DNA of 34,434 nucleotides, taken from the NCBI GenBank assembly GCA_001724265.1, contig MEDY01000329.1:1-34434 (forward strand). Direction: 5' to 3'. Of the stretch, positions 2,084-32,860 are shown one piece after another. This DNA is from Rhizaria sp. SCN 62-66 (lineage: Eukaryota). The notes beneath the pieces are model-generated. The model searched no databases. It was not told the DNA's origin and worked only from the letters and a program-made list of their open reading frames with translations. Both the position numbers and the translations under genes were made by a program. Positions within the stretch are counted from its first letter, which is position 1. The number at the start of each line of letters is the position of its first letter.

Positions 2084-2132
2084 TCTTGTGCTACATTAGA
2101 GGTGAAGTCCAGTCACGATCACTCGCAGCGCA
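1289..2132 (+). repeat. Left arm of a long inverted duplication (pairs with 33488-34434)
   Basis: Direct comparison: tctccagctcctgtgagggatcatgg at 1289 matches the reverse complement of the window end. The 3' flank taatcttgtgctacattagaggtgaagt..cagtcacgatca.tcgcagcgca is shared up to 2132. Confidence 0.95.
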
Positions 2133-3059
2133 CGATGATCTTTTTTTTCTGGACACTTAAGGGGTTTGGGAAGTGTAAAAGGCAATGGAACTTGAGTACG
2201 CGTACAGACTTGTAATGTTAACTTCAAGCTGTACGAATTTGTATTTTGCATTCTCACGAACCCGATTAATGGGGTCGAAGGAGAATAATCATCTGCTCTT
2301 GCTTCCTCACCACAAACGAATCGCGGTGCTGGGGGTGGATATGAACGTTACATGTACGTACGTCAAATGCAGTTTTTGTGTGTTGGTTAACAGAAAATGG
2401 ATGTACTCACACCACAAGAATAGACCATGAATCAGTCAACCACATGACAATCACGTAGCGGGGTACACCGGTGTTTTCCAGGGAATTGCCTACACATGTA
2501 ATTATTATGTCAATGAGACTATGGAGTGAAACGTACGCGACATGTAACATGCGCTATTCGCAAATATATAGTCACATGATATGTATGTGTCACATAAATT
2601 GCTTTTATGACAACATACCCATACGATTTGATTTGAACTCACTCCAGTCTCGTCCACTAAATTCATGATATTAATAGCTGGTTTGACTAACATACATGTA
2701 TTAATAAGCTTACTGACTTAAGCCCCTTCTTGCATCCCGAACACATTGAGAACAGCTTGAGTCGAAGCTCCGCGCTGGCGCCTTCAGGCGGCTCTTAACA
2801 AAGGCTTTAGACAGCCAATGGTAGCACGCATCTGTTGTCGGTGCGTCACCTGGGTTCCTCATGACCTGCCAGGTTTTTAGTTGCAAGTTACATTGCTAAA
2901 ATACTCATGTCGAGTTGATTGTTACACTGACAGAATTACAGCGTAACCAGTAATGAAAGAATAATGTATTATGGATAAATGTGTTTCTAAAAGATGGACA
3001 TAGATTGCGTCGATATAGCTATATGTATAAAAACTCAGTCGTGAACTGAGCATTCGAAT

Positions 3060-6000
3060 TTAAAGCTCATTATGAAGCTGTTTGATCTCGAGACTCCACA
3101 GCAGCCCCATCTCCTCCTCCTCCTTGCGGGCCCGCGCGACGGCCTCGAGCGCCGCGCGCACGCGCTGCCGGTGCTCCGCCGCAAAGCTCCCGTACGCGCG
3201 GTCGCGGTGCGTTACGATGGCGCGCGCCAGAGGCCCGCGGTAGGCGGTCACGGCCGGCGACGTCAACACCGTGCCGACGTTAGCACTGCGAGCGCCACCG
3301 TGTTGCTGCTGCTCCTGCTGCTGCTGTTGTAGGGGCGCGTCGGAGGCGGAGTGGGGCGCGGCGGCGATGGACAGGAGGCGCAGCGAAGAGCCTGCCGCGC
3401 CGGCTGCAGCGGCCTCGCCAGCGCCACAGCCGTTGCCAGAAGAGCTACTATTCTTGGCGCCATTGCGATTGTCGCTGCTGTTGTCAAAAGATGCGAACAT
3501 GGACTCGAAGGCGTCAGTGAGTTCGGCGGCGGAAGCGCCGGAGACAGCACGCAGCAGCGCGCCAACCGCGGCCGTCACTGGGTTCGCAGCGGCAGCAGGG
3601 GCAGCGCTGCTGCTAGAGCCAGAGCCAGAATCAGAGCTAGTGGTAAAGCTCGAGCTCGTGCTGCGAGGGGCAGTCGCAAATGAAGCGGCCGCGGCAGCAA
3701 GAGCAGGGGCGCAAGCAGCGGCGACAGGGGCCGACGTGAGCGCAAGCGCCGGTGACAGCGACAACATCAACGATGACGAGGACGAAGATGACGACGACTC
3801 GGAGCCCGAAGTTAAGCCGCTGGTGGTGGCAGCAAGGCGCGACTTAATGTAAGCCGCCTCCATGGCGCGCAGTGAGGCGAACATCGCGATCACAGGATCG
3901 GCAACGAGAGCGCCAGCAGTGATTGCGGTGCCGCTGACATTCACAGTCGACTGACTGGAGACTTGAGTCAAAGCGTTACTCGTGCTCGTAGCAGCGCCGT
4001 GGTGTTGCTGCTGCTTGGCGGCGACAGCAACGGCGTGAGCCAAAAGCTCGCTGCCGAGCTTGAACAGCTGTTTGGAGCCGCCGCTGCCGGTCAGAGCAGA
4101 CTTGGCGCCCGCATTGGTGCTGTTAAGGAGGCCCAGGACGTCGAGGTGCGGACCGAGCACCGCGAGCGGGGCCAGCGGGGACGCGAACACCGCGCTGCTC
4201 ACCCCGCCAGCCGCACCACTCGCGGTGAGAGCACTGGATTTGGCAGAGGCAGCGCTCAAGGAAGCAGCGTTGTTGGTGTTGGCGTTGTTGAGAGCGCGTG
4301 CGAGGGCCACGACGCGGGTGTGCAAGTACCCGTCTAAGGGCAGCATGCCGAGTGTAAGGGGCAGGCCCGGAATGCGCGTCGTTAACAGACGCGGCGCCGT
4401 CGCAGCCACGGCCACGGCACCAGCGCTCGCGTTCGCAGCAGCGGTGGCGGCAGCAGCAGCGGCAACAGCCAAGTCAGAGCCGGAGCCAGCTCCAGCGCCA
4501 GAGCGGGCGGTGAGGGGCGCCAACAGCACGCTCGCGTGGGCCGCGTTCGCAGCGGCGGCAGCAGCGGCAGCGGCAGCGGCAGCGGTGCGGCTGCTGCCGC
4601 CCCCGCCGCGGTGGCCGCCCTCAGCCGCGGCCGAAGCGGCAGCGGCCGCGGCCGCGGCGGTGGCGTTGGCGGCGTTGACGGCTACCGCAGCGGCGGCCAC
4701 GGCGGTCGTGGCCTGCGCGCCGAGGGACATCGCCTCGATGCCGCCGCCGCTACCGCTCTGCGCGTTGGCGCCCTAGCTGGCGCTGGCGGCGGGCTGCGCG
4801 AAAGCGGTGGCGAGGGCGGCGGGCGGCACGCGGCACTCGACGGAGCGCGCGAAAGCCTGGCGCAGGCGCAGCGGGTTGCGCACGGTCACCGCAGCAGAGC
4901 CAGCAGCGGCGCCGTTAGCGCCGACGCTAAGGCTCGTGCTGCCGAGGCTGGAGTTAACGTTGCTGAAGCTGACGGCGGCGGCGGCGGCGCGGGACGGCTC
5001 GGCGCCGCGGATCGCCGGCAGGGTCACTGTCCCGCTGCTGACGCCTACAAAGCTGCCAGCGGTGCCGTTACTTGAAACAGCAACAGCAGTGATGGGAACA
5101 GTGGCATTGCCGACGCTCACGGACGCGTCAGCGAAGTTGCTCGCGACCGTGAGAGGCGCCAGAGCGGGGGCGCCTGCCTTGCGGTCAGACAGAGCGCCGC
5201 TAGTCGTCGCAGTGACAAAGCCGCTCGAGTTAAAGCTATTATTGTCGTTATTGCTGTTGCTGTTGATGCTACGAGCCGAGACGACGGGTGCGAGGTCTTC
5301 GACTGCAATCATCGCGTCGCCGTTGACGACAAGCGCCTGCGTCGCGTGCGTGATGCGCTGCATGAACACGCGCGCGACACAGGCCTCGGCCACCACGGCC
5401 ACCACGCGGTACGCAGCGGCGGCGCGGGCGGCGGCCACCGCGCGCGCAGCCTCCGCCTCGGCCAGCCCCGTCAGACTCGCACCGCCGGCCCCTGCCTCGC
5501 TACCATGGGCCATGAGCAGCGCTGGCCCCAGCGGGCGGCGGTGCGCGACGGCGGCGGCGCGCGTGCTCTCGCGGTGGCGCTCGAACGCCTCCGCCAGCGC
5601 GCGGGCGACAGCCGCGGCCTCTGCGGCGGAGCGGCAGAGAATGTCAGCGAACACGGCGGCGGCGGCGCGCGGCAGCAGCGGGGCCGTGCGCGCGGCCATC
5701 AGCGCCAAACGCGCGCGCGCAGCCACAAGCGTGGCGTGGGCGGACCGGCGCAGCGCGCGCGAATGCGACAGCAGCTGCGGCGGCAGCGCGGGCGCGGACT
5801 GGGACGACATCAGGGCGTCGACAGCGGCGGCGGTGGCGGCTGCGGCGGTGGCGGCGGTGCTGCTGCCGGCTAAGCTGCTGCGAGTGCTGGCACTGCCGTT
5901 GCTGGCGCCGAGAGCGCCGCCCCGAGCGGGTTTGCCGTTCGCGCCGTCGCTACTGCTAGACGGGGACGCGACAGTGACCGATCCAGTGTTGCTGCCGTGG

Positions 6001-9000
6001 CTCGGGCTCACGGGGCTCGCAGCGCCGGCGGCGGTGCCAGCGGAAGGGACGGCGGCCGCGGAGGCGGCATGGCAATAGAATGTGGCGACCATCGAGCGCT
6101 CGTGACTGGCCATGGCGGCGGCGATCGAGTCCTCAAAGAACACAGATGCGCCGCCGACGGCGTTCGCGCCAGAGCCGGGCTTGCCGGCGCTGTCGGTGTG
6201 GCTACCGCTGATATGAGAGCTAGAGTCGCTGTTGCCGCCAGCAGTGTTGAGCCAGGAGCTGGGGGGCAAGGCCCAGGAGATCGCGCCGGAGGCCGCGGCC
6301 AACACGGGCGCGGCCGAGGCGGCGGCGAAGGGCGCAATCGCGCCGTGGCTGCCAACGCTGCTCACGCTCACTGCAGCGGCACCCGCGTTCGAACCGGTAG
6401 CATTAGCGCCGACGCCAGCGCTCTGCGTCGTCGTGGTGGTGCTGGTGACTGAAAGGATGGGCGCAGTAGTCGCCAGAGCGCCCGCGGAGACGGCCAGCGC
6501 GGTACTTACACCAGAGGTACTTACATTATCCGTGACGAACATGTAGGGGAAGAGCAGACGTGTGAGCGGCGAGGCCGTTGCGTTGAGCGCGGCCGCGGCC
6601 CACGTGGCCACGGCGCCCGTGGCGATGATGCCCGTCGACAGCACGGCTGCCGCGGCACCGTCCGAGGGGGTACTTAGAGCGGAGACGGTGGCTACGCGCA
6701 GGTTCACGCCAACAGTCGTGTTACAGCTCGGACCAGCAGCGGAAGCGGCAGTGGTCGCACTCTTCGCGTTGATGTTGTTCACAGCGTTCGCGCCGGCGCT
6801 GTTGTTATACAGGGCATCATGGGCGACGGCGACGGCGCTGGGCAGCGGGAACGACTGGGCAGAGGCCGAGGCGGCCGCGGTGAGCGCGATGGGCGCGGCG
6901 GCGTCGCGCGCAGTGACCACGACGCGGGCGACGGCGCCGGCGCCCGCGCTGCCCACAGCAGCGGCGGAGCCACCGTTGGCGGCGCTAGCGGCTGTGGAAG
7001 CGCTGGCGGGAGCGCTGGTGTGAGTCAGAGTGCTGCTGGTGGTAGAAGTGGCAGCGGCAGGGGCGACGACGGGCACGGTGCTGGTGATCGCGACGACGGC
7101 GACCGCGTCCGTCGCGCTCACAGTCACGGAGCCGCTCGCACCGCAGAAGTCCTGCTGTTGCTGCTGGGGTGAGGGAACGGCGCTCGCCTGCGCGGCCGCG
7201 GAGAGCGCCGCAATGGCAGCCGCGCCCATCCGGCTGCCGCTGTCGCCGCCCGCCGCGCTAGAGCCAGCAGCGCGACCAGCGGCGGCGGCGGCGGCGGCAA
7301 TGAGAGGCAGGGCAAAGGCGTTAGTGCCGGCGCTGCCGCCGACGGGGGCGGACGCGGCGGCGGCGGCGACGGAGGCGGAGGCGGCCGAGGCCGCGGCGGC
7401 CACTGTGTTGGACGCGACGGCTGCGTTAGGGCCGGCGAGCGCGTGGCCCATCGCGACAGCGCTCGCGCCAGAGCCGGCGTCGCCGATGATCGTGGTAGTG
7501 GCGCTGCTCAGAGCGCTGTTGCCGCCGCCGCCGCTGTTCGAGGCGAGCGAGCGGACGAGGGGACTGGAACCAGGCGCGTTGGCGTTGCTGTTGTAGCTAA
7601 CCGCGACGGCGGCGGGGGCGAAAACCGTGTGCGCGTTCAGCACTGAGCCGGCGCTTGGGCCAGCAGCGCCGCCACCGCCAACAGAGCCAGAGGTGGGGGC
7701 ATTACCAGCCGCGCTGCCAGTGTAACTGCCGCCTGCTCCTGCGAGCGGCGCCGCCGAGGCCGCCTGGTCGAGCAACAACGCGGCGTAGCTGCTATCATGC
7801 CAGTGGGGGTTCAGCTCAGGCCACAGCAACAGCGCCGGCGACAACGACGGCGGGAAGATCAACGAAAGCGACGGCGCGCCGCCGCTGCCTCTGCCCGTCC
7901 CACTGCTAGAACCGCCGGAGGTTGTGAAGGTCGGGGCAGCGACCGAGGCAGGCGCGGCGGCGGCGGCGGCGGCAGCGGCGGCGGCGGCGGCGGCGGAGGC
8001 GGAGCCGGCGCGGGCGCCGGGGCGACTGCTGCCGCGGGGGGTGCCTGCAGTGCCGGCGACCCCGACAGCGTTGCTGCCCGCACTACCCGTAACCGCGCTC
8101 GCGCTGGCGTTGCCACCGCTGCCAGGGAGGGCGCTGCCACGCTTGCCGCGCCCGCCGCTGCCGCTGCCGCTGCCGCTGGAGCCGGTGTTGGCGCCGGCGG
8201 CAGCGGCCGCAGCGGCTGCGGCAGCCGCAGCGGCCGCGGCGGCAGCGGTGTTGGCTGAGTGCACGCATGCGAGCAGCGACTCGACCAGCGCGGGTGAGGC
8301 CGCCGCCAGGGCAAACAGCGACGCGTTGCCGGGCACGGCGCCGGCGGCAGCGCCAGCGCCAGAGAGGAAGGCGCGCGAGTGGCCGTGGGCCGCGGCCGCA
8401 GTGGCGAAGTGGCTGTGGGCGGAGCTGTGGGGGTCGTGGAAGGGCAGGCAAAGTACGGAGGCGGGGGGAGCGGGCAGCGCCCACACGCACCGCATATCGC
8501 CGCTGTCGGCCGCTCCGCCCGCGGGCGCGCTGCTCTGCGTGACGCGGGAGTACAGCAGCACCGGCGGGGCCAGCGAGTGGGGACCCGCCGAGGCCGCGAC
8601 AGCGGTCGTGGCGGCGGCGAGCGCGGCGGCGGTCGCGGCCGCGGGCGACAAGCCGTTAACACCGACGGCAGCATTGGAGCTGTTGCCAGCGGCGGCGACG
8701 GATGCGAGCTCGATGGGGTCGAGCACGGCATTAGCGGCGCTTGTGATCGTTCCAGTGTTGTGCGTAGCGATGGCGGGGGCCGCGGACGTGCTTACACTGC
8801 TGTTGGTGTTGGGAATCGCGGATGTAAGCAGGTACGTCCAAGGGGAGACGCCTAAAGGGGCCGCGCCTGTAAGGGCCAGCAGCGTCAGCGACGGCGCACT
8901 CGCAGCGCTGCCGCTAGCAGCAGCAGAGCCGACAGCGGCGGCAGCAGCAGCAGCATTAGCGGCTACAGTCGTACTTGCAGGAGCCGTGGCAGCGGGAGCG

Positions 9001-12000
9001 AGGCTACCGCCGGTGTACGCTGCCGAGAACAGCACAGACTGAGGCAACGGGGGGAGCACACCTGCATTCGTAGCGTTACCATTCGCACCGGTACTGCTGC
9101 CGCTGCTGCCGTTGCTGCTGCTGTCCTCAACGGTGCCAGGGCTAGCGATCGTGACGTTGCCGACGGGGTAGGCCGCGCCGAGCCCCGCGATCGCGAGCGT
9201 GCTCAGGGGGTCAAACCCGCCCGCCCCCGCACCGCCGGTGGCGTACGGGCCCGTGAAGTCCCCCCACTCGGGGTACGTACCGCCCAGCGCAGACTGCGCA
9301 GTCCACAGCAGGCCGCCCGCGCAGGGGAAGGCAGCCGCGGCCGCGAAGGCCGAGGCGGCGGCGGCGGCGGACCCAGGGCCGGCCGCCAACGCGAGGCCCG
9401 TGGCCAGCCCGGGGGCGGAGGCGGCCGCAGCGGCAGCGGCGGCCGCGGCGGCGGCAGCAGCGGCAGCGCCACGCTTGTTGGCACCTCCAGCGGCGGCCGC
9501 AGTGCTCACGGTGGAGCCAGCGCCTGCAGCGCCTGCTGAACCGATGCTGCTGCTGCTGCCTGAGACGGCGGAGTGGCCCGCAGCAGAGCCGGCGACGGCA
9601 CCCGCGGCGGGCGCTGCAGAGGCGGTGGCAGCGGATGGGGGTTGGGGCGGGGGAAATGTGAGCATCGGCGCGAGAGCAGGCGCTAAGGGGGCCGCGGTGT
9701 GCAGGTACCGCGCCTGCGCGGAGGCTGAGAGGTACAGAGACGCCAGCAGTGCGGCGCCGCCGTCGAAACCACCGGCGTTGGAGCTGGGGTTCGCGGGAGA
9801 AGACACTGAAACAATAGCAGTCGACGTTGCACTGTTGATGTTGTTCTTGCTGTTGCTGCTGTTGCTGCTGTTGCTAGTCAAGTATGTCAGCGCGGCGAAC
9901 GCGCGCGGTACGGGCTCGAGCGCGGGCAGCGGCAGCACGAAGGGCGCGGCGCTGCGCGCGGCGGCGACGAGCGCGTGCACGGACTGCGCCCACGAGGGGA
10001 ACGCCAGGGCGAACGAGGAGACAGTCTGCCAGAGCAGAGGGTGGTTCCACGCCACGGCCGCGGCCGGCAGCGGGGCCGGCGCCAGAGTCAGCGCCGCGTT
10101 GCCGCCGCCGCTGCTGCAGGTGCTGCTGTCGCTCAGGAGAGTGACCGTGGGCATGGTGGTGGGCAGCCCCGGGCCGAGCCTCGGCAGCGAGACCGCAGGC
10201 AGCAGCGCCAGCGCGCTGTAGGCGGCCAGCGCGGCGGGGGCCGTCGCGGGCGGCACCAGAGACAAGCCGGCGCTCGCGGCAGAGGCGAAGGACAGCGAGG
10301 AGGCGGCGGCGGCGGCGGCAGCGGCAGCGGCGGCCGAGGAGGAGCCAGAGGCCTTGCCACTGGGGGAGGTGAAGCAAGCGAGAATAAAAGATGACATTTA
10401 GAGACGAAGACGTAAGTTAATGAAAAATATATAAATCATATAGGATCAATATTTCGAATTCTTATTATGGAAAAGGCTAAATTGTGTTGATATACAGATT
10501 TACGTACGCAGCAGAGCGCGAGCCTGCGGAGGCCCCGCCCGCGCCGGCGCCGGCCGCGGCCTGCGGGGGCGGCGAGGCCAGGGCGGCCACGGTCGCGGCG
10601 GGCACCCCGGCCGCCGCCACAGCCGCCGCGACGGCGGGCGTGGCGAGCAGGAGCGGAGTTAGCGTGCCGTTGGCGGCGAGCGCTGCGACATGGGCGCGCG
10701 CGAAGGCCTCGAACACGAGGGCCGCGAGTTTCAACAGAGAGAGCGAGTGCGTGAGGCTCAGTGCGGTCGCAGAGGCCAGCGACAGCGGCGGCAGCGGCTG
10801 CGTCAGGCGGGGCTGCTGTTGCTGATGTTGTTGCTGTTGGGCAGAAGCAGGGGGAGAAGCGGCAATAGAAGCAGACGCGCTGCTGTTGTTGGAACCCTTG
10901 TTCGCAGCAGCAGCACCACCACTAGGAGCGGAAGTCGCAGCGCTCGTATTGCTGGGGACAGTAGAGATGTTGAGATACTCGTTGAACTGAGCCAGGTCGA
11001 TTGAAGCTGCACCGGCAGATCCCGCGTTCGCGCTGATATCCTTGCTGTTGTTCGCAGAATTGCCGCCGCGAGTGCTGCTGTTCCTAGACACACCCTTAGA
11101 CCCTGCGGCATTTACACCCGCCGCACCCGCGCCGGGGCCGCCGGCAGTGGCAGCAGAGAGCGCCGGGGCCTGCGCCTGTGTCTGCGCCTGCGTCAGGGGA
11201 TCCGAGGCCGGGACCAGGGACGCGACGGCGGCGGCGGGGCGCGCGGCCAGCCCGGCGGCGCCGTGGGCTGCCAGCAGGGCGACCGTATGCGCGGCCTGCA
11301 GCTGCAGGAACGCCGTGGCCGCGGCCAGGTGCCGGTGCAGCACCGCCGCGCGCTGCGGGTAAGCCGCGGCGGCCGCGGCCACGACGACGGCACTCGAGCC
11401 AGCACCCGCACCTGCGCTCGCGCTCGCGCTCGGGTTCACGACAGCAGTCGAGTGAGGGTGCGGCTGAGGGCCGCTGAGGACGGGCGCGTAGGCCAGGGGC
11501 AGGAAGCCCGTGACAGCGAGCAGCGTGGCGTTGCTCAGCGGCAGCGTCAGGCCACAGGGCGTGGAGATCACGACACTGGGGACGGCGACGGCGGCGGTCT
11601 CGGCCGCGCCCGCGCTCGCGCTGCTGCTGCTGTTGTTATTGCGGTGGGCGGCGGAGGACGGGCGCGAGTTGGACAGCGCGGACGGCGACCGCGAGGGGGG
11701 CTGCGAGCCACCGGCGCCGCCGCTGCCCCGCACGGACCGGGCGCCAGGCTTGGCGTTCACAGCGGTCGGCGTCGCGACTGCTGCGGCCTCGGCGGTCGCG
11801 TCAGCGGTGTTACCGTCAGCGGTAGCGGTGTTGCCGCCGTTGCCGGCAGCGCCGTCGCCGATGTCGGCGTCGGTGTCGGGGGCGGGGATGGCGGGGGCGT
11901 AGCTGTTGATCGCGAAAGTCAAGCCGCTGACGACGGCGCCAATCGCCGTCGGCATGCCAGCATTGACAGCGCTCGCAGCGCTCGAATTAGAACCAGAGCT

Positions 12001-15000
12001 ACTGTTGTTGCTGTTGTTGTTGCTGTTGTTGCTGCTCGAGGTTGCGGCGACAGCGAGTGGCGACTGCGCCTGCTGCGTGTGGGGCAGCGCGCGGAGATAC
12101 ACGGCGCGGCGGCTGAGCGCCAGGCGCAACGCCGTGAGCATCGACAGCACCTGCACGGCCGCGCTCTCCTGCTCGCAGGCGCCCGCGCACGCGACGGGCA
12201 CGGGGGCGGGCAGGTACACCGCGGCGTCGCTGCTGCCACGGGCGGCCGACTGCTGCGGCAGCGGGTTGGCGGCGACGGTGACTGCGCCAGGCGCGGCGGC
12301 GACAGCGCAGGCGTGCTGCGCAGCGTGCGCGGCGGCGGCGAGCGGGTGCGCCGCGCCCAGCGACGCCATGACGGCGGCGAACACGGCGCGCACCCTCGGC
12401 AGCCGCGCGGCCAGCGGCTCGCGCGAGACCGCGGCGGGCAGCGAGAAGCTGTCGCGGGACGAATTCTTGGCAGGCCTGCTATGGGCGGCGACAGCGCGGG
12501 GAGCGGTCTCAGGGTCGATGCTGCCGGTCTCGACGTCGTTGTCGTCGTCGGTGCTGTTGCTGGTGCTCTTGCTCTCCGGGTCGCTCTCGTCGCCACCGCT
12601 CTGGGCGGCGAGTCGCAGCGCGGCCGCGGAGCGTGGCGACAGCGCCTCAACGGGCAGACTGGCCTTGGTGCTGACGCGCGGGGTAAGGACCGCGCGCGCC
12701 GTCGCGTTCATGCGCTCTTGCAGCGCGCGCTGCCGGTCCGCCGAGGCGGCGATGCTTGCGTCAAACACGGCGACCTCAGACGCGGCGGTGTCGTGGCTAG
12801 CGCTTCCAGTCTTCGCCAGAGTCTTGTTCAGCCTCTTCGTGGTGCCGAGACTGCTGCTCGTGGAGCTCAGACCGCCCAGGTTGCCTGTGCCCTTACCGCC
12901 ACTGTTGCCGCTGCCGCTGCCGCTGCCGTTGTTGTTGTCAAGCTGCTCACAGTCGGCCAGCATGAGCTCCAGCGTCTCAATGAGCCACAGTAGCTCCCTC
13001 TCCTCCACGGCAGCCGCCTCGGTCTCCCGGCTGACCACGTCCACGAGCGACCGCCGAAGCGCGCCGAAGCGCTTGCCCGCGCCGAAGGCCAGGTCGAGCT
13101 CTGCGCCGCGGGCGCCCGAGGCGGCGGCAACGGCGCCCGTCGCGGCGGCCACGGCGGCGGCAACAGCGGCGCGCGCGGAGGCGAAGCGCGCCGTCTGGTG
13201 CGCGTGCAGCGCAGCGAGGGTGGCCGCGGCGGCGTCGAGCTTCGAGGCGTAGATGGCGCGCTCGATCGGGTGCAGCTGCAGAGTCACCGCGGTCGCTGCG
13301 GTGCCGCTGCTCGCAGAGCCGTTACTAACGCTGCTGGTGGTGACGCTGTGAGACTCGGTGATGTTGGTCGAGGTCGTCAGCGATGTCTCTGCAGCAGCGG
13401 CGAGCGCGGGTGTGAAAGCGGGCAACAGGAACCCGCCAGTAGAGCTTGAGCTGTCAGCGCGGTTCGCGTCGGCGCCAATGTCGCTGATAGAGCCGTTGCC
13501 GCCCGCGGCGCCATTGGGGTGAGCGAGCGTGACCGGCCCCGTGGCGGCGTTGGCGCCGGCGCAGGGGTTGAAGGGTCGCACCTGGAAGTGCAGCAGTGCG
13601 TTCTGCTGCGGGAACAGCATCGCGTCCGTCTCGGCCACGGCGTCCAACGCGCCGGAGCCAGCGGCGCCGGCGGCGGCAAAGCGGCCAGTGCTCGCTCCCG
13701 CGTTGAAGCGGTTGCGGCGGACACCCGCGGTCTTGAGGCCCGCAGCCGCAGTGGCGGGGCGCGCGTTGGTGTTCGCCAGAGTCGTGCTCGTCGCAGCGCC
13801 GCCAGTGCGAGTGAGGCTGAGCGCGGTGCCGTCAGACTGCGTGAAGGCCAGCAGCTCGGCGGTCGCCGTGACGGCCTCGAGCGAGAGCAGCAGCTCAGTC
13901 GCATCCCTGCCATACGGCAGCGCGGGTGCGAATGCGCTGAGCCCGCCGCGGTAGCCGCTCACAGTCGCCTGCAGGCGCGCGTTCACCGCCGCGGCCTCGG
14001 CCTCGGCGGCCGCGATGTCCGCGTACGCCTGCGCCGACAGGGCGCGGATGCGCGCGCGGGCGGCTGTCGCCACGGTGGAGGCGTTCGCGCGGTCGTCAGA
14101 CACACTGCCGCTGGAGGCAGAATTAGAGCTAGAGCTGTGGGGGCTGTTGGAGGCGGCGAGTGTTGACTGGCACTGGAGCGCAACGGCCGCGACGTCTCGC
14201 TGCAGAGCCCCGCCGGCGCGCTCGCAGACCGCGGCCGCGGCGGCCTCGCCGCGCTCGGCCTCGCCTGCGACAGCGCCCTCGAAACGCCCGAAGGCGGCCG
14301 CGTGCGCGGCGAGCTGCGCCGACCGCGCGGCCGGAAGTGCGCGCGCGAGACGCGAGTGCAGCGCGGGCAGCTCGTCGCCGCGCTGCATGCTCAGTGACGC
14401 CGCCGCGGCCGTGCGGGCGCGCGCCGCGGCGGTCAGCGCGGTGGCGCGGCGGGTCAGCAGCGACTGCAGGTGGCAAAGGTGGCGCGCGCGCAGGGCACCG
14501 AGGCGCAGCGCGAGGGGGCGCGGGGACAGGCGCAGAGACAGAGGCGCGAGCGTCGCGACAGCACTGCCAACAGCGCTAGCGGAGTGAGAGTTAGAAGAAA
14601 TGAGAAGCTTGCGGATAGTCAAGCGGGCCGTGGTAATAGCCGCGTTATTGATGCTACTACTGCCGTTGTCGTTGTCGTTGTTGTCGACGCCGTTCTCATC
14701 CTCGTCGTCGTCAGCCGTCTCATCGCCCTTGGTACCGTTGCCGTGGATGCCGGAGTCGTCGTCGCAGCTAGCGCTCTTGCAGCCGCCAGCGATGCTCATG
14801 ATGGCGGTGACTGCAGTGAGGGCCGCCGAGACGGCCGGCGTCTCGCCGGGCAGGCAGCACGGGTCGCCGGCGATCAGACTGGCGCCGACGCTACCGACAG
14901 TCATCGCAGTGCAAGAGCTTGCGCCCGCAGTCGATGCGGCGCCAGCGGTGTTGGCGACAGGCGTGTTGAACGCGGCGGCGGCGGCGCGGGCGGCGGCGAG

Positions 15001-17259: not shown

Positions 17260-17292
<33 letters not shown>

Positions 17293-23200: not shown

Positions 23201-26001
23201 GCCTTGCGACCGCTCTTGCCGTTGAAGCCGCTCGTAGTCGCATCAGCGGCTGCGGCCGTCGTCACGGGCTGCTGAGCAGAGTGCGCGGAGTCCGGACGGC
23301 GGCCGCGCTTGGCGCCCTTGGTGGCACGCCGATGCGACGGGACACCGGCGTTGCCGCTCTGCTTCTGCTCCTGCTCCTGCTCCTGCTCCTGCTCGAACGA
23401 CACGACAGAGCTCGAGCTAGAGCATGTGTTAGTGCTCTTGTTGATGCTGCTTTGGGAACTCGCAGTCGCAGCGGGCACGTAGGGCGCCTTGAGCTTGCTG
23501 ACAGTCTTGTTGCACAGCATCTGGTGCCGGCGGGCGCCCCAGCGCAGCAGCGCCTGGCCCCAGACCGCCTTGACCCACGCCTCCCGCTGCAGCCCCTCGC
23601 TGCGCAACCGCGCGACGACGGCGGCGCGCGTGCCCGCGTTGCGTGTGAGCACGAGCGCCTCGCTGTCGACGCACTGCTGCAGCTCGAGCGCCGCCGCGTC
23701 ATGGCCCAACCCGCCCGCGGCCGCCGCCACGCACTGCGCCGCGCACGCCGCCACGGCCTCGGCGATGCGGCCGCGGTGCTCCCGGTCGCTGCGTTCGAGC
23801 TCGGCGGCCAGAGCGGCCACCACGTCGCCGCGCGCGCGCAGCAGCGCCGTCACCGAGGCCTGGTGTTGCGCCAGCTCAGCGCTGCCGCCCGCCCACGCGG
23901 CGTCGACCCGCTGCGCGTGGATTAAGTTAAGCCGCGCCGCCGTCTCAGCCTCGTCGGCGAGCGCGGCGGCGGCGGCGCGGGCCGCGGCGGCCAGCTCGCG
24001 CTGACGCTGCTTCGCCGTCTCAACCGCGGCGGCAAGAGCAAGCTTCGCCGAGGCCAGGGCGGCGGTCGCAGCGGCCACGGCGGGGGTCGGCTGTTGCTGC
24101 TGCTGCTGCTGCGCCGCGTCAAGGGCGCCGGCGTTGGCATTGTTGCGCTTCGAAAGCGTGCCGCGATGGGAGCTGCTGCTGTTGTTGTTAATGCTGTAGG
24201 TGCCTGAGGTAGGGGTGGCCGCCGCGGACGCGGGGGAGCCGAGGCGGGTGGACGCGGACCGGGACGACGGACGCTGCGCCGACGCGTTACCAGCGTTCAA
24301 ACTCGCATTCGAGTCGGACTCTGCGATGGCGAGGGCCAGCGACGCAGCCTCCTCGGTCGTCGTTGCCGCCTTGACCTGCTCCTGGGCCTCGGCCAGCGCG
24401 GCAGCCGCGGAGGCCTTTTCCTGCTCGAACACGTCACTCAACCGAGGCGGCTTGACTTCCGCTGCGGCGTCTATGGCAGCCTGGTCCACCGCGCCCAGGT
24501 CGTGCAGCTTGGCCGCGATGGCCGCGTCCGCGCCGTGCAGCGCCGTCCGGGCCGCGTAGAGCGCCGCGGTGGCGGCGTCGCCGGCGAGCCGCGCGGAGGA
24601 GAGGATGGCGCTGCGGGCGGCGGCCACGGCGGCGGACTGCGCCAAAGAGCGACGGGCAGCGAGAGAAGACAAACGGGGGGAAAAGGCCGGGGCGGAGTCT
24701 AATGGGGTCGAGAACAAGGCACTTAGCTCACGGTCGGCTTCAGCAGCCACTGCGTCCTCATCATCATCGTCATCATCGCCATAATTGTAGCTGTTGTTGA
24801 TTGCGTTGTTGCCTGTGATAGACAGCTTATCAAACACATCGACAACATTCACGTTCCGAACACCAGAGCCAGAGCCAGAGCCTGAGCCAACACTCGCAAT
24901 CGCAGAAAAGCCAGAGCTGGCGCTGGCGCAAACGCTGGGCATGTGGGTGTGCGACTGGTCCACGGGGTCGTCCGGCAGCTGCGAGACCAGCGCGGCGTCG
25001 TCGCGGCGGCTGCCCATGCTGCCCAGAATCGGCGGCGGCCCCGTGGGCGGGACAAGCCCCAGGGACAGCAGCAGCGCGCGCGCGCGTGCCTTGAGCGAGG
25101 CACGCGACGCGGCGACGCGTAGAGCGGCGGCCGAGGCGACCGCGTTGTCGTAGTCGTCGTCGCCGTCGTTGTTATTGGGGTCACTGGGGAAACCGCTGCT
25201 GCTGCTCGTGACAGTCAGCGCTGAGCGGGGCGCTGAAATGCTGCGGCTAGAGTCTGCGTCAGCGTTATCGATGGCACTGCTGCTACTGCTGCTGCTGCTA
25301 AGACTGGCCAGCGTGGACGGGTAAAGTGCGGCGTGGAGCAGGTCGTGGAACCCGCTCACAGTTACGGAGCTCGTGTCGAGCTTGAAAGCCGAGGCGTCGG
25401 ACGCGACTGACGCGGCGGCCGAGGAGGACGTGCTGACTACCGCGCCCACGCCACCCCCGCCGCGCCCGCTGAAACCCGGGCCGTGGTGCTGCTGTTGCTG
25501 TGCGGTGACGGCGGAGGCAGCAGCGCGCGTGGCGGGCTCGAGCGGCGTCGCCTCGTCCCCGCGCGCCTGGGCCGTAGCGAGCGCGCGGACAGCGGCCTCG
25601 GTCTTGAGGCGCGCGTACGGCACCCAACCGTCGGCGGTAGCCAACGTGGCGATCAGCTGCGCCGCCTTGGTCGCCCACTGCTGCGGGGTCACGGAGGGCG
25701 TGCACTGCGACGCGGCGACAGGCTGATGCTGTTGCTGCTGCTGCTGGGCGCTCGCACCAACGTCCGTGCTGGTGCTGTTGCTGCTGGTGGCGGCTGCGGC
25801 GGAGGAGCGGAGCGCGGTGGTGGCGAGCGCGGCGGACATGGTCGTGGCGAGCTTGGTAGCGTGCAGTGGGTTAAGCGCCACCGATGAAGGCGGCAGCGCG
25901 CTCAGCACAACGGGGGGGCGCGGCGGCGCGGCGGGGGAGCCCGGGGCGCGCGGCTTAGAGGTCGCGGGGGCCGCGGGGGAGGGCGAACCGGCGCGGCTCA
26001 T
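3060..26001 (-). CDS. CCDC180: Giant CCDC180/CFAP76-like (DUF4455 + DUF4456) flagellar protein; exons 26001-20113, 19953-10508, 10359-3060; in-frame TAG at 4773-4775; 7,544 aa if TAG is sense, 6,973 aa if it is a stop
   Basis: Four consecutive same-strand ORFs are joined in frame by two AT-rich GT-AG introns and one TAG. Conserved islands were recognised from memory of the family. N-terminal: LERSDREHR..EALVLTRNAGTRAAVVARL..LQREAWVKAVWGQALLRW (about 23920-23510, DUF4455-like). Internal: FERHRE..HRRPLGPAL..EAEAAR (about 5690-5330, DUF4456-like). C-terminal: RAIVTHRDRAYGSF..EEEEMGLLWSLEIKQL. ATG at 26001-25999, TAA at 3062-3060. Confidence 0.72.
4773..4775 (-). other. In-frame TAG inside coding sequence (putative sense codon)
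   Basis: Context gcc agc gcc agc TAG ggc gcc aac gcg cag. The frame continues for 570 more sense codons to TAA at 3060, with the same GC-rich Ala/Ser/Gly codon style on both sides and no AT-rich intron. Confidence 0.85.
10360..10507 (-). other. Spliceosomal intron 2 of the CCDC180-like gene, 148 nt, phase 2
   Basis: Donor GC|GTACGT, AT-rich body, pyrimidine tract ..cttgcttcacctcccccAG|T. Splicing gives GCT and joins the two ORFs in frame (RSAA-GKASGSS). Confidence 0.88.
19954..20112 (-). other. Spliceosomal intron 1 of the CCDC180-like gene, 159 nt, phase 0
   Basis: Donor CAG|GTACGG, AT-rich body, acceptor ..tttcatactccttAG|GGC. Splicing joins KQLIQ to GNASDALAAID in frame. Confidence 0.9.
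23365..23394. repeat. (CTGCTC)5 hexamer encoding an EQEQEQ dipeptide repeat on the - strand
   Basis: Read directly from the sequence. Confidence 0.85.
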
Positions 26002-26841
26002 GCTGGAGAGGGCGCTGTAGGGACGCAGAGGCTTGTACCGGGCGGTGCTGTGCGGTGCAGGGCAGAGCGGAGCGAAAGGGGAGCTGCCAAGAAAGGTTGG
26101 GGTCTGAGGCAGGGCTTGCTACGGGTTCTAAATCGGTTTGGAGGAAAGCTAGTGCGTACACGATAGAAATTGTGCGGGATAATGTTATAGTGAGGCGGTA
26201 GTCCGAGAAAGTACGGTTACAGTGAACTAAATGACATAAGAGTGAGCGGAAGTGAACACAATCGGTTTCTGTAGAGGGCCACTGGGTTCTCGTGGCCATG
26301 GAGGAACATAGTAACTGGGAGATTCAAAAATTAAACTGCAGTAAATTTCGCGTGTGTAATATCTATGAAACCCATCTGTTCGCTACTTGATGATCAATCG
26401 AGGATGATTTTCGATGCAGAATCATCCTTAGTTTGAAATGTAGCTCGAGATGGGCCAGTTCGCAAAAAATCGGGCCGATTCTCGAGAAGAAGAGAGAGGA
26501 GCTCTCTCTCTCGAAGATATGAAATGTTGGTGGTTTGCGCCCTTGAAGTCCGAGAGTTTGGCTGCTTTTTCAATGCTAGCGCTTATCAGTATGATATTAT
26601 TTTCTACGTGTATTTGATATCCGCTCAATGCTACTTTGGGTGTGACCAGCTGCAAAAGAAGATTCCAAAAATCTACTTGAAGAGACTAAATAAGTAGACC
26701 TCTATCTCGCTACTAAAACGTTTGTACTCGCATAATAATGTTTAAGATATAGCCTCACCAGTACTGTTCATATTCTTTTTCACTAATTTTATCTGCGCTT
26801 GTAGCGGTTTCGTTGTACACTCGCCTTACATTGAAGGTGGA
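26002..26841. promoter_or_regulatory. Divergent (head-to-head) intergenic region, presumed promoters and 5' UTRs of both central genes
   Basis: About 0.85-0.95 kb of lower-GC spacer between oppositely oriented start codons. No specific core motif was identified. Confidence 0.5.
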
Positions 26842-26967
26842 ATGGCCCGGCCACCAGGCAAGTCTGTCTAGTTCCCTTTCTCAGATTCTCTACGAGCTGC
26901 ATACTCACTCCAAAAACCCGTCCACGTGTCCGTACTCCCCGTCGGTTCCATATCCGCCACCGAGGCG

Positions 26968-29900
26968 ATGTCCGATCAACCCTCACTTGGTTGCGGGCCC
27001 GTTTCGGCGTCCCACTTCCCCTCTGCAACGGGCGCGCGTGCAGGCATCCAATCCCCACTCTCCTCCACTGCCGCTGCTGTCTCCACTGCAACCGTGGGCC
27101 CGCTGCCCCTGTTTGCGGCGAAATTGCCCGCGCAGCCTTCCCGGCCGCTGCTCTCCGCGTCCGACTCGTGTGGGCCTTCTGACTACTCGAGCGCCACCAC
27201 GTCTCCCATGCTGCGCCCCTTTCACACCAACATCAGCATCAGCGGCGGCGGTGGCGGCGGCGGCGGCGGCGGCAACGGTCACAGCAGTCTCGGCCATATG
27301 TCATCGACAGGCGGCGGCTCGAGCCTCAACACCAACAGTCTCGGCGCCTATATAGCAATCGCCAACAGTTCGAGCTCCTTCGCTGCACCCGCCTTCACAC
27401 ACTGCAACAACAGCAGCAACATCAACGGCTCTGCTTGCCCCAGCACGCTCTCCAGCGGCTTCGCCTCGCCAGTGGCTGCGGCCGGCGCTATTACAACGAC
27501 GGTGACGACGCCATTTACATTCCCGCCGCCGCCGCGCCCTCCCAACCCTTCTAGCACCAGCGGCATTCGTCTCGGCTCTGGCGCTAGTTCTGGCTCTGGC
27601 TTGGCTGCTGAGGTTGTGCCGCTGCCGCTGCCGCAGCGGACAGCGTCTTCGCTGCAGCGGCTGCCGAAGCAGAACGTTGCCAGCAGCGCCGCCAACACGG
27701 CCGCCGACGCCGACGCCGACGCTGACGCTGAGGCAGAAGCAGAAGCAGAAGCAATGGCAAAGGCAGGCTCAGTGACTAAGAAGTCGAGGCTGAGGGCAAA
27801 GGCGGCGGATGGCGACGACAGCGTCACTGGCAGCGACTACGACAACTCGCCCGCGCTCATGCCCACTGTGATCTATGCCCGTATAAACACTGGTAACGTG
27901 GTGAACGACCGCGGCCGCAGCCGTCCTGGCGGTGGCACCAGCCACAGCAGCAGCGCCTGGGCCTTGAGACAGCACAGACAGCAGCCGCGCGAATTGAGGC
28001 AGTCGCGGTCACGCCCACGGTCACGGTCGCAATCGCGCTCGCGGCGGCACAAAAGCGGCAACGCGGGCAACGACGGCCACATTCAACTGCCGCATTTACA
28101 GCCGCAGCAGCAGCAGCAGCAGGTAGCGCGAGAGCGTCAGTCGGCGCAGCCCCACCGCCACCGCGGCCACGGCGCAAGGCATGGTGGCGATGTTGTGTCT
28201 AGCGGCAGCAAGAACGCATCCGCCGCTCACGACAACGGCGACAAAGATGACGACGACGACTACGATGCCGAGAGCAGCAGCGGGGGGGTGTTGCCGTCGG
28301 AGTTGGCGAAAGCGCTGTCGCGGACTTACTCGAACGTGTCGACGCGCAGTTCAAGAGCTGACGAGTTTGCAGCACTTGCGAGCAGTAACAACATCAACAA
28401 CAACAATATTAACGGCACGTTCAACGACAACAGCGACGACAGCAACGGCGACGACGATTGTGACAGTGACCGCTTTGTCTCGGCTTATCTCGGCAATAAG
28501 AGCAAAGCTCTCGGCGTCCACACCGCTGGTGTCGGCAATGCGTACACTTGCGGTGTCAACGTGAGTGTAAGCGCGAACGGTCCCGGCCACGGTGGCCGGA
28601 AGCAGTGGAGTCAGAGGCGTGATCTCAGGCAGCAGCAGCTGCAGCAGCAACAGGACCCTCAAAGTTATGCCGCCTCGGGCTCCGCTGTGAAGAGTCAAGC
28701 CGTGACTTACTGCACGTGTCCCCTCCCCGTCCACGGTCGCAGCCGCCGGCAAAGTCACAGTCACCGTCATAGCGGTCATGGCCACGGCCAGGATGCGCCT
28801 TGCGAGCCAACAGCAGTGATGCATGACGACGACGATGACACGAACAACAAGCCCTCCCATAACGCTGTTGGGGCCAACGTCTCTGTGCCGTCGCCATTAT
28901 TCTCGTCGTAGACTCGCACCGGCCTCAACGCTCGGAACGACTGCGACAGCAACAGCAACAGCAACGGCTACAGTAACGACTACACCAGCACTGTTGTTGA
29001 CTGCCGCATCTGTGGTGGCGCCATTATCATGCTTCCCAATAAGAAGCGCGGCGACGATAGCGTCAACGGCACTCATAGCGCGAATCGACGTGGCCGCAAC
29101 CGTGTCCGCGACAGTAATGCTGCTGCTACTGCCGCTGCTGCTGCTGACCACTCCAGCATCAGTGACGCGAACCTCAACAGCAGCAACAGCTTCGGCGACA
29201 GCTGCGAGTTTGACAGCTGCAGAAGTTACTGCAGCTGCTATACGCACAGCAGCTGTGCCAGCGACTGTCTCAGTGACGCGACGAGCAGTGGCGGCGACGA
29301 CGACACCAGACAAACCAACCCTGCCAGTCACAACAACATCTTGCAACAACAGCAACAACAACAGCAGCAGCGGCGCCGGCACAGACACCTGCGCCGGCCC
29401 CAACTGAGCCCGCAGGAGCTGGAGTCCCTCCTCAAAGAGCCTCTCGCGCCGCGGACGTCTTCACGGTCCCAACAGCAACAGCAGCAGCGGCAGCGGCTCG
29501 CGAGGCCGGCGCATCCCCCGCCCCCCAACACGCCTCGGCGCGGCGCGGGGGGCGCGCGGTCTGTCGCGGCGGCGGCAGCGGCGGCGGCAGGTGGCGGCGG
29601 CGGCTCTGCGCCGGCGTCGGCCCCGTGCTCGGCGCTGAACTCGTCCTCAGACAACGTCGCAGTCGCGGATAATAACCACGAACTCGACCACGACAACGAC
29701 TTCGACAGCCATCGCGTCAGTGGTCTTCAGAGTGGCACTGCGGCTACTGGTGGAGCTGGGGACGCGATGGCTGTAAACGCTGCAGCTGTCGGTGGCAATA
29801 TAAGTGATATGAACGATATCGGCACCGCTGGCCCAGGTCTAAGTACCTCTGGCGCTGGTCTAAGTAGGCCGGCGACGGTGTGCTCTAAGGGTGGCGTTTA

Positions 29901-32676
29901 CTTACACTTACACCAAGCAACGGCCACAAGCAACGGCAGCGCAAGTGGGATTGCCGACAACAACTCCGGCAGTTACATTCTCCAGCACCAACAGCCGTCG
30001 CCGTCGCAGTTCGCGCCGCCGCGGCCGCTGTCCCAGGCGCAGTCTCGCGCCGTAAGCGCGGCGGGCGATAGCGCCAACGGGAACATGCTGCTGTTGCCGG
30101 CAACGGGCAACGGTGGCGGCGTTGGCGTTGGTCCTGCTGTGTTGGCCAGCAACACGGCTGGCCGCAGCCGCAGCATTTCGGAGTGCTTGCCGTCGCACCC
30201 GTCTCTTGCCACCAATGCAAGCAACAATACTGCAAATACGAGCAGCAGCTACCAACATTAGCAGCAACTGCTGCAGCCGCAGTTGCTGTCGCTCAGTAGC
30301 AGCATTTCCCACTTTCTGCCGCAAAACTTCATTCAGTCTCTGATGCGCCCGTCGCCACCTCTGCTACCGCCCCAGCAACAACAGCAGCAGCAGCAGCAAC
30401 TGATTGCTGCGGCTGCTCTCGCGGCCACACCGTCGCGGTCACCGGGTCTGACACTCCATAGTAAAGAGGCGGGCGGCCCTGTTTCAGTGCGCGGAAAACG
30501 GCCGGCTGTTGACACGTTCAGCGCCAGCATGAAAGCCGCTGCCAACGGTACGCTGCCACTGGCGAAACCGTGCTCACGCCGCAACAACAGCGACCACAGC
30601 CGCTCTGCTGCTGCTGCAGCTACGTCGAGCGGTGTGAATGCGCTTAAGAGCGCGCGTGCGAAGGCTGCAGCAGGCAAACGAGGCGACATGTTTGACAGCG
30701 ACGACGACGACGGCGGCGGCGCCGGTGATCGGCGGAGCTGCAGCGGCAGTGGCAGCGACAGCGGCGCCGCCAGCGGCGCCGCCAGTATAAGCGGCAACAC
30801 CGAGGACGACGACGATGACAACTGCGACGATAGCAGTCTCAACTGCAACAGCACAAGCAGGAACAATAAGTACACTGCTGCTGGCGGCGGCGAGCGCACC
30901 GCGAATGGTCGTGCGTGTGCTTGTGGTAAAGATGGCACCGAAAACCGCCGCGGCAATGCCAACAGCGGTAAGAGCAGCTTCGGCACCCACAGCAGCGACG
31001 ACAACAGCTGCTGCAGTCACTGTGAAAGCGACACGTACAGTCGCACCGCTTTCCCGCGCAGCCACGCTCGCAGCGGCAGCGGCTCCACCAGTGACAGCGA
31101 CAGTGACGACTTGGCTGACGGCGGCGACGACGACGTGTGCCTGCTGTTGGCTCAGCCCTGCTGCCCTCGCTGCTGCCCCGCCGCTGCCGCCGCGATCGCG
31201 AAGTTGGATACCAACGGCAGCTACGGTACCAACAGTACTAGTATCAATCCCAATCCTGGTGGTGTCATCGCGGGTGCTGCCGCCGCGAGATCTGGGTTGT
31301 TGTCGTCGTCCGCGTCTGCGTCCGCGTCCCCGGCGCTGCAGCTGTCGCTCTCTGCCGTGTCCTCGTCCTCGTCCTCGTCAAATTCCCCCGTGTTCCAATG
31401 GCAACATCAGCAGCAGCAACAGCAGCAACAACAACAGTTTGTGATGTCTCTCGTGCATAGCGCCAGTGGCGGCAATAGCAACCCCGCTAACAGCTCGAGC
31501 GCCGTTAGCTCGGGCGCCGCGAACGCTGTGGACCTGGCGAACGACAACATCAGTGTTGCTGCTGCGAGCGCGCCTGTAATCACGCTGACTGCGGTCGCGC
31601 CCCTGAGACGGCCGCCGCTGCTCTGTGCGCACGGCCACTTGGCTGCCGCTGCGGCTCATAACCACGGTCACTGTCATAGTCATAACCACGTCCAGCAGCA
31701 GCAGCAACTTGAGGGCCTTTGTGTCCACTCGCAGCAACAACAACAACAGCAGCAGCAGCAGCAGCAGAGTCAACAGCAGAGGCAGCGGCAGATGCACTTG
31801 CGTGTGCGGAAACAAGCCCAATCGCCATCGTTGTCGTCATCATCATCACCATTGCGGCAACAGCAACAGATGCGGCAACAACGCAGCCACGTGGCCGTGA
31901 GCGCGCAGTCCCCTCATGGCAACACTTACTGCAGCGGGCACAGCAGCGGTCACGGCCGCAGTCACCGGCACCGGCGGCACATGGGTTCGCGCAGCAGTTC
32001 GAATGCATCGCCGGGCAACAGCGCTGGCACTAGCAACCGCCCTAGCAGCCCTCTCGGCGCTGCCACTAGCTACTACAGCAGCAGCGCCAACACTTACCGC
32101 CACGGTGGGAGCAATGCCCTCAGCCCACTGCATCGCCCGCGGCCGCCGCAGCCGCAGTCGACTCTCTCGAGTCCCAGGTACGTTCCTATAGTTGGATTGC
32201 AAAGAATAACATGTGTTTCCTCCGATTAAACCTTTGAAATGCGTCTAAAATTAATTAGATTATTGTCGTTGCTTTTTTTGCTCAACATTGAGTCTTGCAT
32301 TTTGCTCACTATTCTGACCGCTCGTCATTGCCACTTGTATTTGTGTGCCTAGGCCTGTGTGGGTGTGGTCACAGGTCTCCGTGTCGCCGTTCAAGCCGCT
32401 CGCAGCCGTCGCTCCCGCGTCCGCAGCAGCAGCAGTAGCGGCAGCCACGGCCACAGCGGCGGCGACAGCAGCAGGGGCAGCTGCAGCGACTGCAACTGGC
32501 CCTAGTTCAAGCGCTAGTTTGAACAACACGGTTGGCTCGATGCTCCCTCTGTCAACGGCAGTGTCGCAGTCACCGCCGACTCTTGCCCACAGTCACTCTG
32601 CGAACGCCCACGGTCACAGCTCGACTGGGTTGGAGCAGGAGCCAGTTGATTTGTTCAAGAAATGGCAACAGCGGCC

Positions 32677-32735
<59 letters not shown>

Positions 32736-32860
32736 GACAACAGCATAGCGCAGGTGCAAATGGCTGCTTTAGGGCTGGAAACGCGGCTGCAGCTGCAGCT
32801 TATGCTGCAGAGGCTGCCAATGCCGCGGCTGCCGCTGCTGCTGCCGTGAATAAGAACTAA
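26968..32860 (+). CDS. Large low-complexity Ser/Gln/Ala/Asn/His/Cys-rich protein of unknown function; exons 26968-32177 and 32353-32860; in-frame TAGs at 28909 and 30259; 1,905 aa if TAG is sense
   Basis: ORFs 26926-28911, 29029-30261 and 30283-32229 share one frame and are separated only by single TAG codons. One intron links them to ORF 32345-32860, which ends at TAA. The start is uncertain (ATG 26968, or ATG 26842 through a further TAG). No domain was recognised. Confidence 0.7.
27703..27753 (+). repeat. Hexamer repeats encoding ADADADAD-AEAEAEAE
   Basis: gccgacgccgacgccgacgctgacgctgaggcagaagcagaagcagaagca read directly. Confidence 0.8.
28909..28911 (+). other. In-frame TAG inside coding sequence (putative sense codon)
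   Basis: Context ttc tcg tcg TAG act cgc acc ggc ctc aac. It is followed by 39 typical sense codons (NDCDSNSNSNG..DCRICGGAII) before the next annotated ATG at 29029, in the same frame. Confidence 0.82.
30259..30261 (+). other. In-frame TAG within a Gln-rich run (putative Gln)
   Basis: tac caa cat TAG cag caa ctg ctg cag ccg cag = YQH*QQLLQPQ; the frame continues to the intron at 32178. Confidence 0.85.
32178..32352 (+). other. Spliceosomal intron, 175 nt, phase 2
   Basis: Donor AG|GTACGT, AT-rich body, CTGAC branch-like motif near 32314, acceptor ..gtgcctAG|G. Splicing restores AGG and the frame of the last exon (SPR-PVWVWSQV). Confidence 0.8.
32678..32734 (+). repeat. (CAG)16 CAA CAA CAG polyglutamine tract
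   Basis: Perfect CAG run 32678-32725 read directly; the tract encodes Q19. Confidence 0.95.

Follow-up and report, generated by a model that had tools for sequence, protein, structure and literature searches.

Does the organism behind the 34,434-nucleotide (nt) contig MEDY01000329.1 (Rhizaria sp. SCN 62-66, assembly GCA_001724265.1) read the codon UAG as an amino acid rather than as a stop? The question is raised by the window, i.e., the whole 34.4-kb stretch of DNA analyzed here, which is eukaryotic, contains no N, and carries two giant genes (genes 2 and 3) bracketed by two inverted copies of a smaller gene (genes 1 and 4). Three in-frame TAG codons interrupt the giant genes:

4773 to 4775, minus strand: TAG at codon 6974 of the 7,544 codons of gene 2, followed by 570 codons in the same frame; local GC content 77–86%.
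28909 to 28911, plus strand: TAG at codon 648 of the 1,905 codons of gene 3; local GC content 55–59%.
30259 to 30261, plus strand: TAG at codon 1098 of the 1,905 codons of gene 3, in the Gln-rich context CAT TAG CAG CAA.

UAG is probably a sense codon in this lineage, because the stops found within the gene 1/4 family are skewed toward TAG, homology continues beyond them, the ratio of nonsynonymous to synonymous substitution rates (dN/dS) is not raised in TAG-bearing copies, and no gene end examined is a TAG. The code proposed here, for which the chances are judged good, is one in which UAG is read as an amino acid in all nuclear genes and translation is terminated by UAA (mainly) and UGA. A preliminary description of this DNA had put forward the same assignment of sense and stop codons. 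Its core gains support from the paralogue family, while the in-window statistics offered for it carry little weight.

The family of genes 1 and 4 supplies the evidence that carries this reading. Gene 1 has 32 database homologues, and a scan of metagenome contigs yielded 18 loci (L001–L018), all of which harbor members of the family; the genome-contig and viral-contig collections gave no match to it. The loci are 83–89% identical to the window copies at the nucleotide level and 84–90% identical among themselves, and the window copies are 89% identical to each other. Because these ranges match those between the window copies, L001–L018 are, judged by sequence, paralogues from the same organism or a close relative. 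Loci and window alike are mosaics of ~50% GC and ~70% GC genes.

Stops were counted in tblastn alignments of 33 family proteins (9,368 codons). Alignments of at least 97% identity were excluded, and a stop had to be flanked on both sides by 10 or more aligned columns. Inside the homology blocks of the related loci, this count gives 16 TAG, 3 TGA, and 1 TAA, of which 13, 1, and 1, respectively, are aligned to residues rather than gaps in most queries. The nonsense spectrum expected from the codon usage of the family is 0.46 TAG, 0.30 TGA, and 0.25 TAA, such that the excess of TAG (16 of 20) has an estimated binomial P of ~0.002. Within the family, TAG occurs 13 times per 8,611 codons, or about once per 600.

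Sequence conservation extends beyond these codons. The FRPV motif follows the TAG at position 3046 of L005, and the conserved cysteine and the C-terminal block are present beyond the TAG in L010 (2361) and L012 (785). The codon alignments are colinear at the TAGs; therefore, no insertion or intron is present at the family sites. At four sites, the TAG is two steps away from the paralogue codon (GAT, CAA, GCG, and CTG), which suggests long-lived TAG codons rather than fresh nonsense hits; at most sites, the UAG codons look evolutionarily young. The dN/dS values lie at 0.36–0.60 in every pair and are not higher where a copy bears TAGs, and L001, a copy with three TAGs, has values of 0.41–0.48 versus 0.39 for TAG-free pairs. 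The preliminary description had taken the differing 3′ contexts of the window TAGs as an argument against one programmed readthrough signal. The wider set agrees with it, in that 17 TAG contexts include all four bases at position +4 and share no hexamer or motif. Programmed stop-codon readthrough was rejected on these 17 differing contexts, in which the shared 3′ context that was looked for is absent.

In three paralogues (L001 ~9470, L005 ~382, and L002 ~609), a further TAG is conserved at one and the same position shortly before the CCYKH...ML(Y/F)WCD start region. A role as a 3′ splice acceptor (YAG) is likelier here than one as a sense codon, and this TAG was left out of the counts.

The use of TAG as a terminator was checked at 22 gene ends, a small sample, which comprise 13 TAA, 9 TGA, and no TAG. 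Two of the window genes and one intron bear on this count:

2 to 2083, plus strand: gene 1, its 5′ end cut by the window edge; no in-frame TAG; TAA at 2081–2083.
33556 to 34434, minus strand: gene 4, an inverted paralogue of gene 1, its 5′ end cut by the window edge; probable stop TAA at 33556–33558.
~33676 to 33593, minus strand: terminal intron of gene 4 with a GTGAGA donor, recognized by comparison with L003.

The four window genes had been described as ending in TAA (2081), TAA (3060), TAA (32858), and TGA (33673), never in TAG. The stops are indeed at these positions, but the TGA (33673–33675, minus strand) is probably not the end of gene 4; it sits within the GTGAGA splice donor, which is conserved in the paralogues, and thereby mimics a terminator. 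The spliced frame of gene 4 ends in SAKNDHKSHPK followed by TAA, like that of gene 1. Since the TGA is inside the donor and spliced gene 4 reaches a TAA, each of the four window genes probably ends in TAA.

A terminal intron of ~84–87 nt with a GTGAGA or GTATGA donor follows the FRSP/FRPV motif in gene 4, in L003 (2004–2090), and in L004. In gene 1, this intron has mostly been lost, in frame. Past the TAA of gene 1 (window 2040–2140), homology to the L003 frame at 2090–2240 continues for ~50 codons, and a run of A's at 2071–2078 shifts the frame in the window relative to L003. The annotated end of gene 1 may stem from a homopolymer indel.

The giant genes themselves are laid out as follows:

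3060 to 26001, minus strand: gene 2, 22,635 nt spliced, 7,544 codons, encoding an Ala/Ser-rich low-complexity protein; TAA at 3060–3062.
26001 to 20113, 19953 to 10508, and 10359 to 3060, minus strand: the three exons of gene 2, with refined splice sites.
20112 to 19954 (159 nt) and 10507 to 10360 (148 nt), minus strand: the two introns of gene 2, with GTACG donors and YAG acceptors.
26968 to 32860, plus strand: gene 3, 5,718 nt spliced, 1,905 codons, encoding a Gln/Ser/Asn/Asp-rich low-complexity protein; TAA at 32858–32860.
32178 to 32352 (175 nt), plus strand: the intron of gene 3, GTACGT..TAG, with a GTACG donor and a YAG acceptor.

These intron borders (20112–19954, 10507–10360, and 32178–32352) replace those of the preliminary description, and the start codon of gene 2 is taken to be the first in-frame ATG of its first exon. 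With the splice sites refined, the earlier observation on the reading frames is confirmed: across the 9,449 spliced codons of genes 2 and 3, the three TAGs (4773, 28909, and 30259) are the sole interruptions, and both genes are free of frameshifts and of internal TAA or TGA. The best in-window argument for a sense UAG is this retention of frame across 9,449 codons, despite the triplet-repeat-rich sequence of both genes. Exon-like composition and an unchanged frame persist for 570, 449, and 807 codons beyond the three TAGs. The flanks of each TAG have a GC content of 55–86% and a high GC content at third codon positions (GC3) in the same frame on both sides, compared with 25–32% GC in the three introns; the exons are 63–72% GC with a GC3 of ~0.7–0.8, and the intergenic spacers are 41–43% GC. 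The codon is rare here, with 3 TAGs per 9,573 window codons, or about one per 3,000 codons in the giant genes.

It is very improbable that the TAGs are artifacts of assembly or sequencing, or that editing or unrecognized small introns eliminate or alter them in the mRNA. Such an origin would be consistent with the error-prone nature of metagenome assemblies of low-complexity DNA and with the RNA-run contigs (X5), which sit on exons and, among the matches listed, bridge neither a TAG nor an intron. The joints and loose ends of the sequencing-run contigs are mostly low-complexity noise. However, at position 30259, the assembly error that the preliminary description had allowed for is not borne out, as the TAG recurs in a contig that comes from a different run and a different study (X3, record 8, 29023–31725) and matches with 0 differences; this TAG is, therefore, not peculiar to the present assembly. 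In addition, 16 independent errors that all give TAG would be implausible, and the sequence around the TAGs is rich in GC and aligns colinearly with the paralogues, in contrast to the introns with their low GC content and GTACG donors. Hidden introns at the TAGs were ruled out by the same composition and colinear alignments. A strain contig of ~98% identity (X4, record 16, 28511–30489, 36 differences) spans both TAG positions of gene 3.

Several observations weigh against a sense UAG. Three TGA codons and one TAA also occur inside the family alignments; these are mostly opposite gaps, at a probable intron, or backed by only one or two queries. Frameshifts are found in 2 of the 18 loci, namely a 1-nt insertion in L002 (~2790) and a net −4 indel in L006 (~1430–1470), and the frameshifted L006 carries two of the TAGs, such that at least some copies are, on their sequence, pseudogenes or mis-assembled. 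The source of the related loci may be a relative and not the same species, and several of the family "ends" may represent splice donors instead of true stops. A CUA-anticodon transfer RNA (tRNA), envisaged in the preliminary description, was looked for in the window and the 18 loci (95 kb), which contain no tRNA genes; an Rfam scan of the same 95 kb returned no families.

The composition of the window genes adds to these points. The GC3-rich giant genes are dominated by CAG, GAG, AAG, and TCG (CAG 244 versus CAA 67 in the four largest open reading frame pieces), and from the codon counts of the window genes, a random nonsense hit is a TAG with a probability of 0.65–0.68. Three TAGs out of three would then arise by nonsense decay alone with P = 0.27–0.32. 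The earlier argument that decay would also have yielded TAA and TGA is accordingly weak, and the window statistics weigh little, because one-step precursors of TAG far outnumber those of TAA and TGA. Furthermore, no residue can be aligned to the window TAGs because genes 2 and 3 are orphans. The 18 related loci lack both genes, a word-indexed search with the C-terminus of gene 2 spanning the TAG gave no match among 8,000 low-complexity candidates, and a HMMER pass for the giant genes over 1.84 billion representatives gave one weak match (E = 1e-5, 26% identity). Lastly, at the nine family TAG sites compared, the nearest paralogue has Gln at one and the majority of the eight nearest neighbors has Gln at two or three, and a likelihood based on the nearest neighbor only leaves Q, S, D, A, and E in a near tie.

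Much of this would be expected if the code were standard and the TAGs marked nonsense alleles or recently formed pseudogenes among dispensable genes that evolve fast, i.e., giant orphans and a recombining multi-copy family, in which the commonest precursor codons give TAG. The mosaic nature of the family copies is in line with such an origin, as are the residues opposite the TAGs, which are mostly one-step neighbors of TAG (Gln, Glu, Ser, Leu, and Tyr) and not one residue. A standard code is nevertheless unlikely. It is difficult to reconcile with the share of TAG among in-alignment stops of the family (16 of 20 versus the 0.46 expected), with only 2 frameshifted loci against ~14 well-aligned TAGs, with the unraised dN/dS of TAG-bearing copies, with the two-step codon differences at four TAG sites, with 9,449 repeat-rich window codons free of frameshifts, and with the absence of TAG from all 22 gene ends. 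The skewed stop types, the few frameshifts, and the unraised dN/dS do not fit pseudogenes under a standard code, although single copies such as L006 may be pseudogenes.

If UAG is a sense codon, glutamine is the leading candidate for its meaning. In a substitution-matrix (BLOSUM-based) likelihood calculation over the eight nearest homologues, Gln scores best, at −34.9 versus −37.8 for Glu. The earlier "probably Gln" goes further than this narrow margin would allow, and the closest copies show no single residue: across the nine TAG sites, the nearest paralogue has D, R, L, D, A, S, Q, L, and P. For comparison, of 110 canonical Gln codons in the six closest loci, 88 also face Gln in the nearest paralogue. 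Opposite a TAG, the paralogues carry CAG or CAA at 4–5 sites, GAG at 2–3, and TCG at 1–2, followed by TAT, GAT, and CTG. One column holds two TAGs (L001 10391 and L006 490) and has Leu (CTG) in most paralogues and CAG in one. As the meaning of UAG, leucine fits poorly, since it is the majority residue in this column only and lies outside the eight best-scoring residues. Overall, the pattern fits either rare, recent UAG codons for Gln at tolerant sites or a decoding that is not unique.

In the latter case, UAG may be ambiguous or leaky, being poorly recognized by eRF1 and read by near-cognate tRNAs (Gln, Tyr, Lys, Glu, Leu, Ser, and Trp) without a dedicated assignment, or it may act as sense or stop depending on its position, as happens in codes that lack a dedicated stop. 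Position-dependent and dual-meaning stops have been reported (PMC4967479, PMC12153298), and the near tie among residues, the diverse codons opposite the TAGs, and the rarity of TAG in both the family and the window are compatible with such decoding. It is, however, quite unlikely. The 22 ends contain no TAG terminator, so a dual role as stop has no positive support; the 13–16 sites in a fast-evolving family are too few to separate one residue from several; and even in Iotanema, UAG is reported to be Gln-dominated at only 23–41% of positions outside hyperconserved columns (PMC5304391). A more tentative and not very likely proposal is that UAG reassignment arose independently and is at an early stage in an undescribed GC-rich lineage, widespread in wastewater reactors, outside ciliates, fornicates, and rhizarians. 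Its UAGs would be rare, young, and scattered over non-Gln ancestral codons, and near-cognate tRNAs, in place of a dedicated suppressor tRNA, might insert several different residues at them.

The assignment favored here (sense for UAG, termination for UAA and UGA) resembles a small number of described nuclear codes. Splits between UAG and UAA are reported from few lineages, namely Iotanema, the rhizarian exLh, some phyllopharyngean ciliates, and one oligohymenophorean (PMC5304391, PMC11687900, PMC10553269), and such a split was formerly thought to be mechanistically constrained. In the fornicate Iotanema spirale, UAG encodes Gln, and UAA and UGA are stops (PMC5304391); 204 in-frame UAG codons are described in 126 genes, with 79% Gln at hyperconserved positions (PMC5304391), and its eRF1 is reported to have a change in the GTS motif (PMC9161772). 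By its sequence pattern, Iotanema appears to have the closest known code type. Common to both are in-frame UAG within coding sequence, UAG never seen as a terminator, UAA as the main stop and UGA as the second, and Gln as the best-scoring residue. In contrast to Iotanema, UAG is far rarer here, and a predominance of Gln has been shown in Iotanema only. Likewise, the present organism has exons of 63–72% GC and comes from wastewater reactors, and nothing ties it to fornicates.

The exLh code, from a rhizarian related to Sainouroidea, is reported to use UAG for Leu with UAA and UGA as stops (PMC5304391). It shares with the present case the reassignment of UAG alone, and the two-TAG column is mostly Leu in the paralogues; however, Leu fits only that column, where one paralogue has CAG. 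Phyllopharyngean ciliates are described as having reassigned UAG independently, at GC contents of 27.4–53.6% and with up to 91.1% of genes using UAG (PMC11687900), and Oligohymenophorea sp. PL0344 is reported to read UAA as Lys and UAG as Glu (PMC10553269). As in these ciliates, the meaning of UAG is decoupled here from that of UAA. Unlike in them, the exons are ~70% GC, the introns are 148–175 nt long with GTACG donors, four genes occupy a 34-kb contig, and UAG is rare. Stops of dual meaning are reported in Condylostoma, Parduczia, and Blastocrithidia nonstop, in the last of which UAA is both Glu and stop. These codes similarly tolerate in-frame stop codons genome-wide, but all three stops or UAA are affected in them, whereas UAA and UGA look like plain terminators here and no TAG terminator is seen.

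At the loci examined, TAG is tolerated in frame, is unseen as a terminator, and is independent of local context; by analogy with known codes, this would point to a global change of the translation apparatus, as has been proposed for Iotanema (PMC9161772). By the same analogy, UAG would be decoded by a CUA-anticodon tRNA or by an efficient near-cognate tRNA, and its recognition by eRF1 would be lost or weakened. The three window TAGs would then be normal, if infrequent, sense codons of two giant genes that are functional.

The remaining features of the locus concern the proteins and their setting. Gene 2 has no Pfam domain, and the sole Pfam match of gene 3, to TFIIA, is below threshold. At least half of the words sampled from gene 3 are present in each of four sequencing runs; these belong to three studies of bioreactor, wastewater, or activated-sludge metagenomes, and one of the runs may be the source of the window. 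The conserved C-terminal domain of gene 1 (1184–2080, ~300 residues) has no Pfam match, and its model has a predicted local distance difference test (pLDDT) score of 86.5. A Foldseek comparison of this domain with cyclophilins gives an E of ~1e-4 and a target-normalized template modeling score (TM-score) of ~0.5, and the predicted fold resembles that of cyclophilins. Full-length members of the family begin with a Cys/His-rich, B-box-like motif, as read from the alignment, and a coiled-coil-like stretch; a Pfam search with the family protein P0005 found no domain. The gene 4 product matches database protein P0007 over approximately the first 160 residues, by eye, and then diverges, a pattern that suggests mosaic copies or gene conversion.

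Several neighbors of the family copies were noted in the related loci. L001 contains a 2,331-codon open reading frame (2–6997, plus strand) with TIG, Sushi, ephrin-receptor-like, and TRP-like domains, which has no TAG and ends in TAA. L003 contains a 175-codon open reading frame of 42% GC (2753–3277, plus strand) with one in-frame TAG and an H...Q...CG-type motif that recalls a cysteine protease; a Pfam match at E < 0.01 is absent. A histidine ammonia-lyase fragment in L004 is 66–75% identical to vertebrate enzymes and, by an eye count, about two thirds identical to the best PDB chain, 6v6h. It was discarded as a taxonomic marker, as its similar closeness to the vertebrate enzymes and to 6v6h gives no placement. 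Atlas matches were likewise uninformative for taxonomy. The B-box, Sushi, TIG, and ephrin-receptor-like domains offer a lead, and only a lead, toward a holozoan affinity.

The code described here is probably a new example of a known but very rare kind, the split code. In the literature searches made, no such code is listed for a wastewater eukaryote or a holozoan. The genomic setting is very different from those of the known cases, in that exons of ~70% GC are those in which TAG should be favored rather than lost, and a case of this kind would test the codon-capture and the eRF1/tRNA models of stop-codon reassignment. If the early-stage proposal were true, this lineage would represent a genetic code change caught in progress. 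On a practical level, gene callers that assume the standard code truncate the proteins of this organism, as illustrated by database protein P0009, which ends exactly at a TAG of L005; annotation errors may, therefore, affect eukaryotic bins obtained from wastewater metagenomes.

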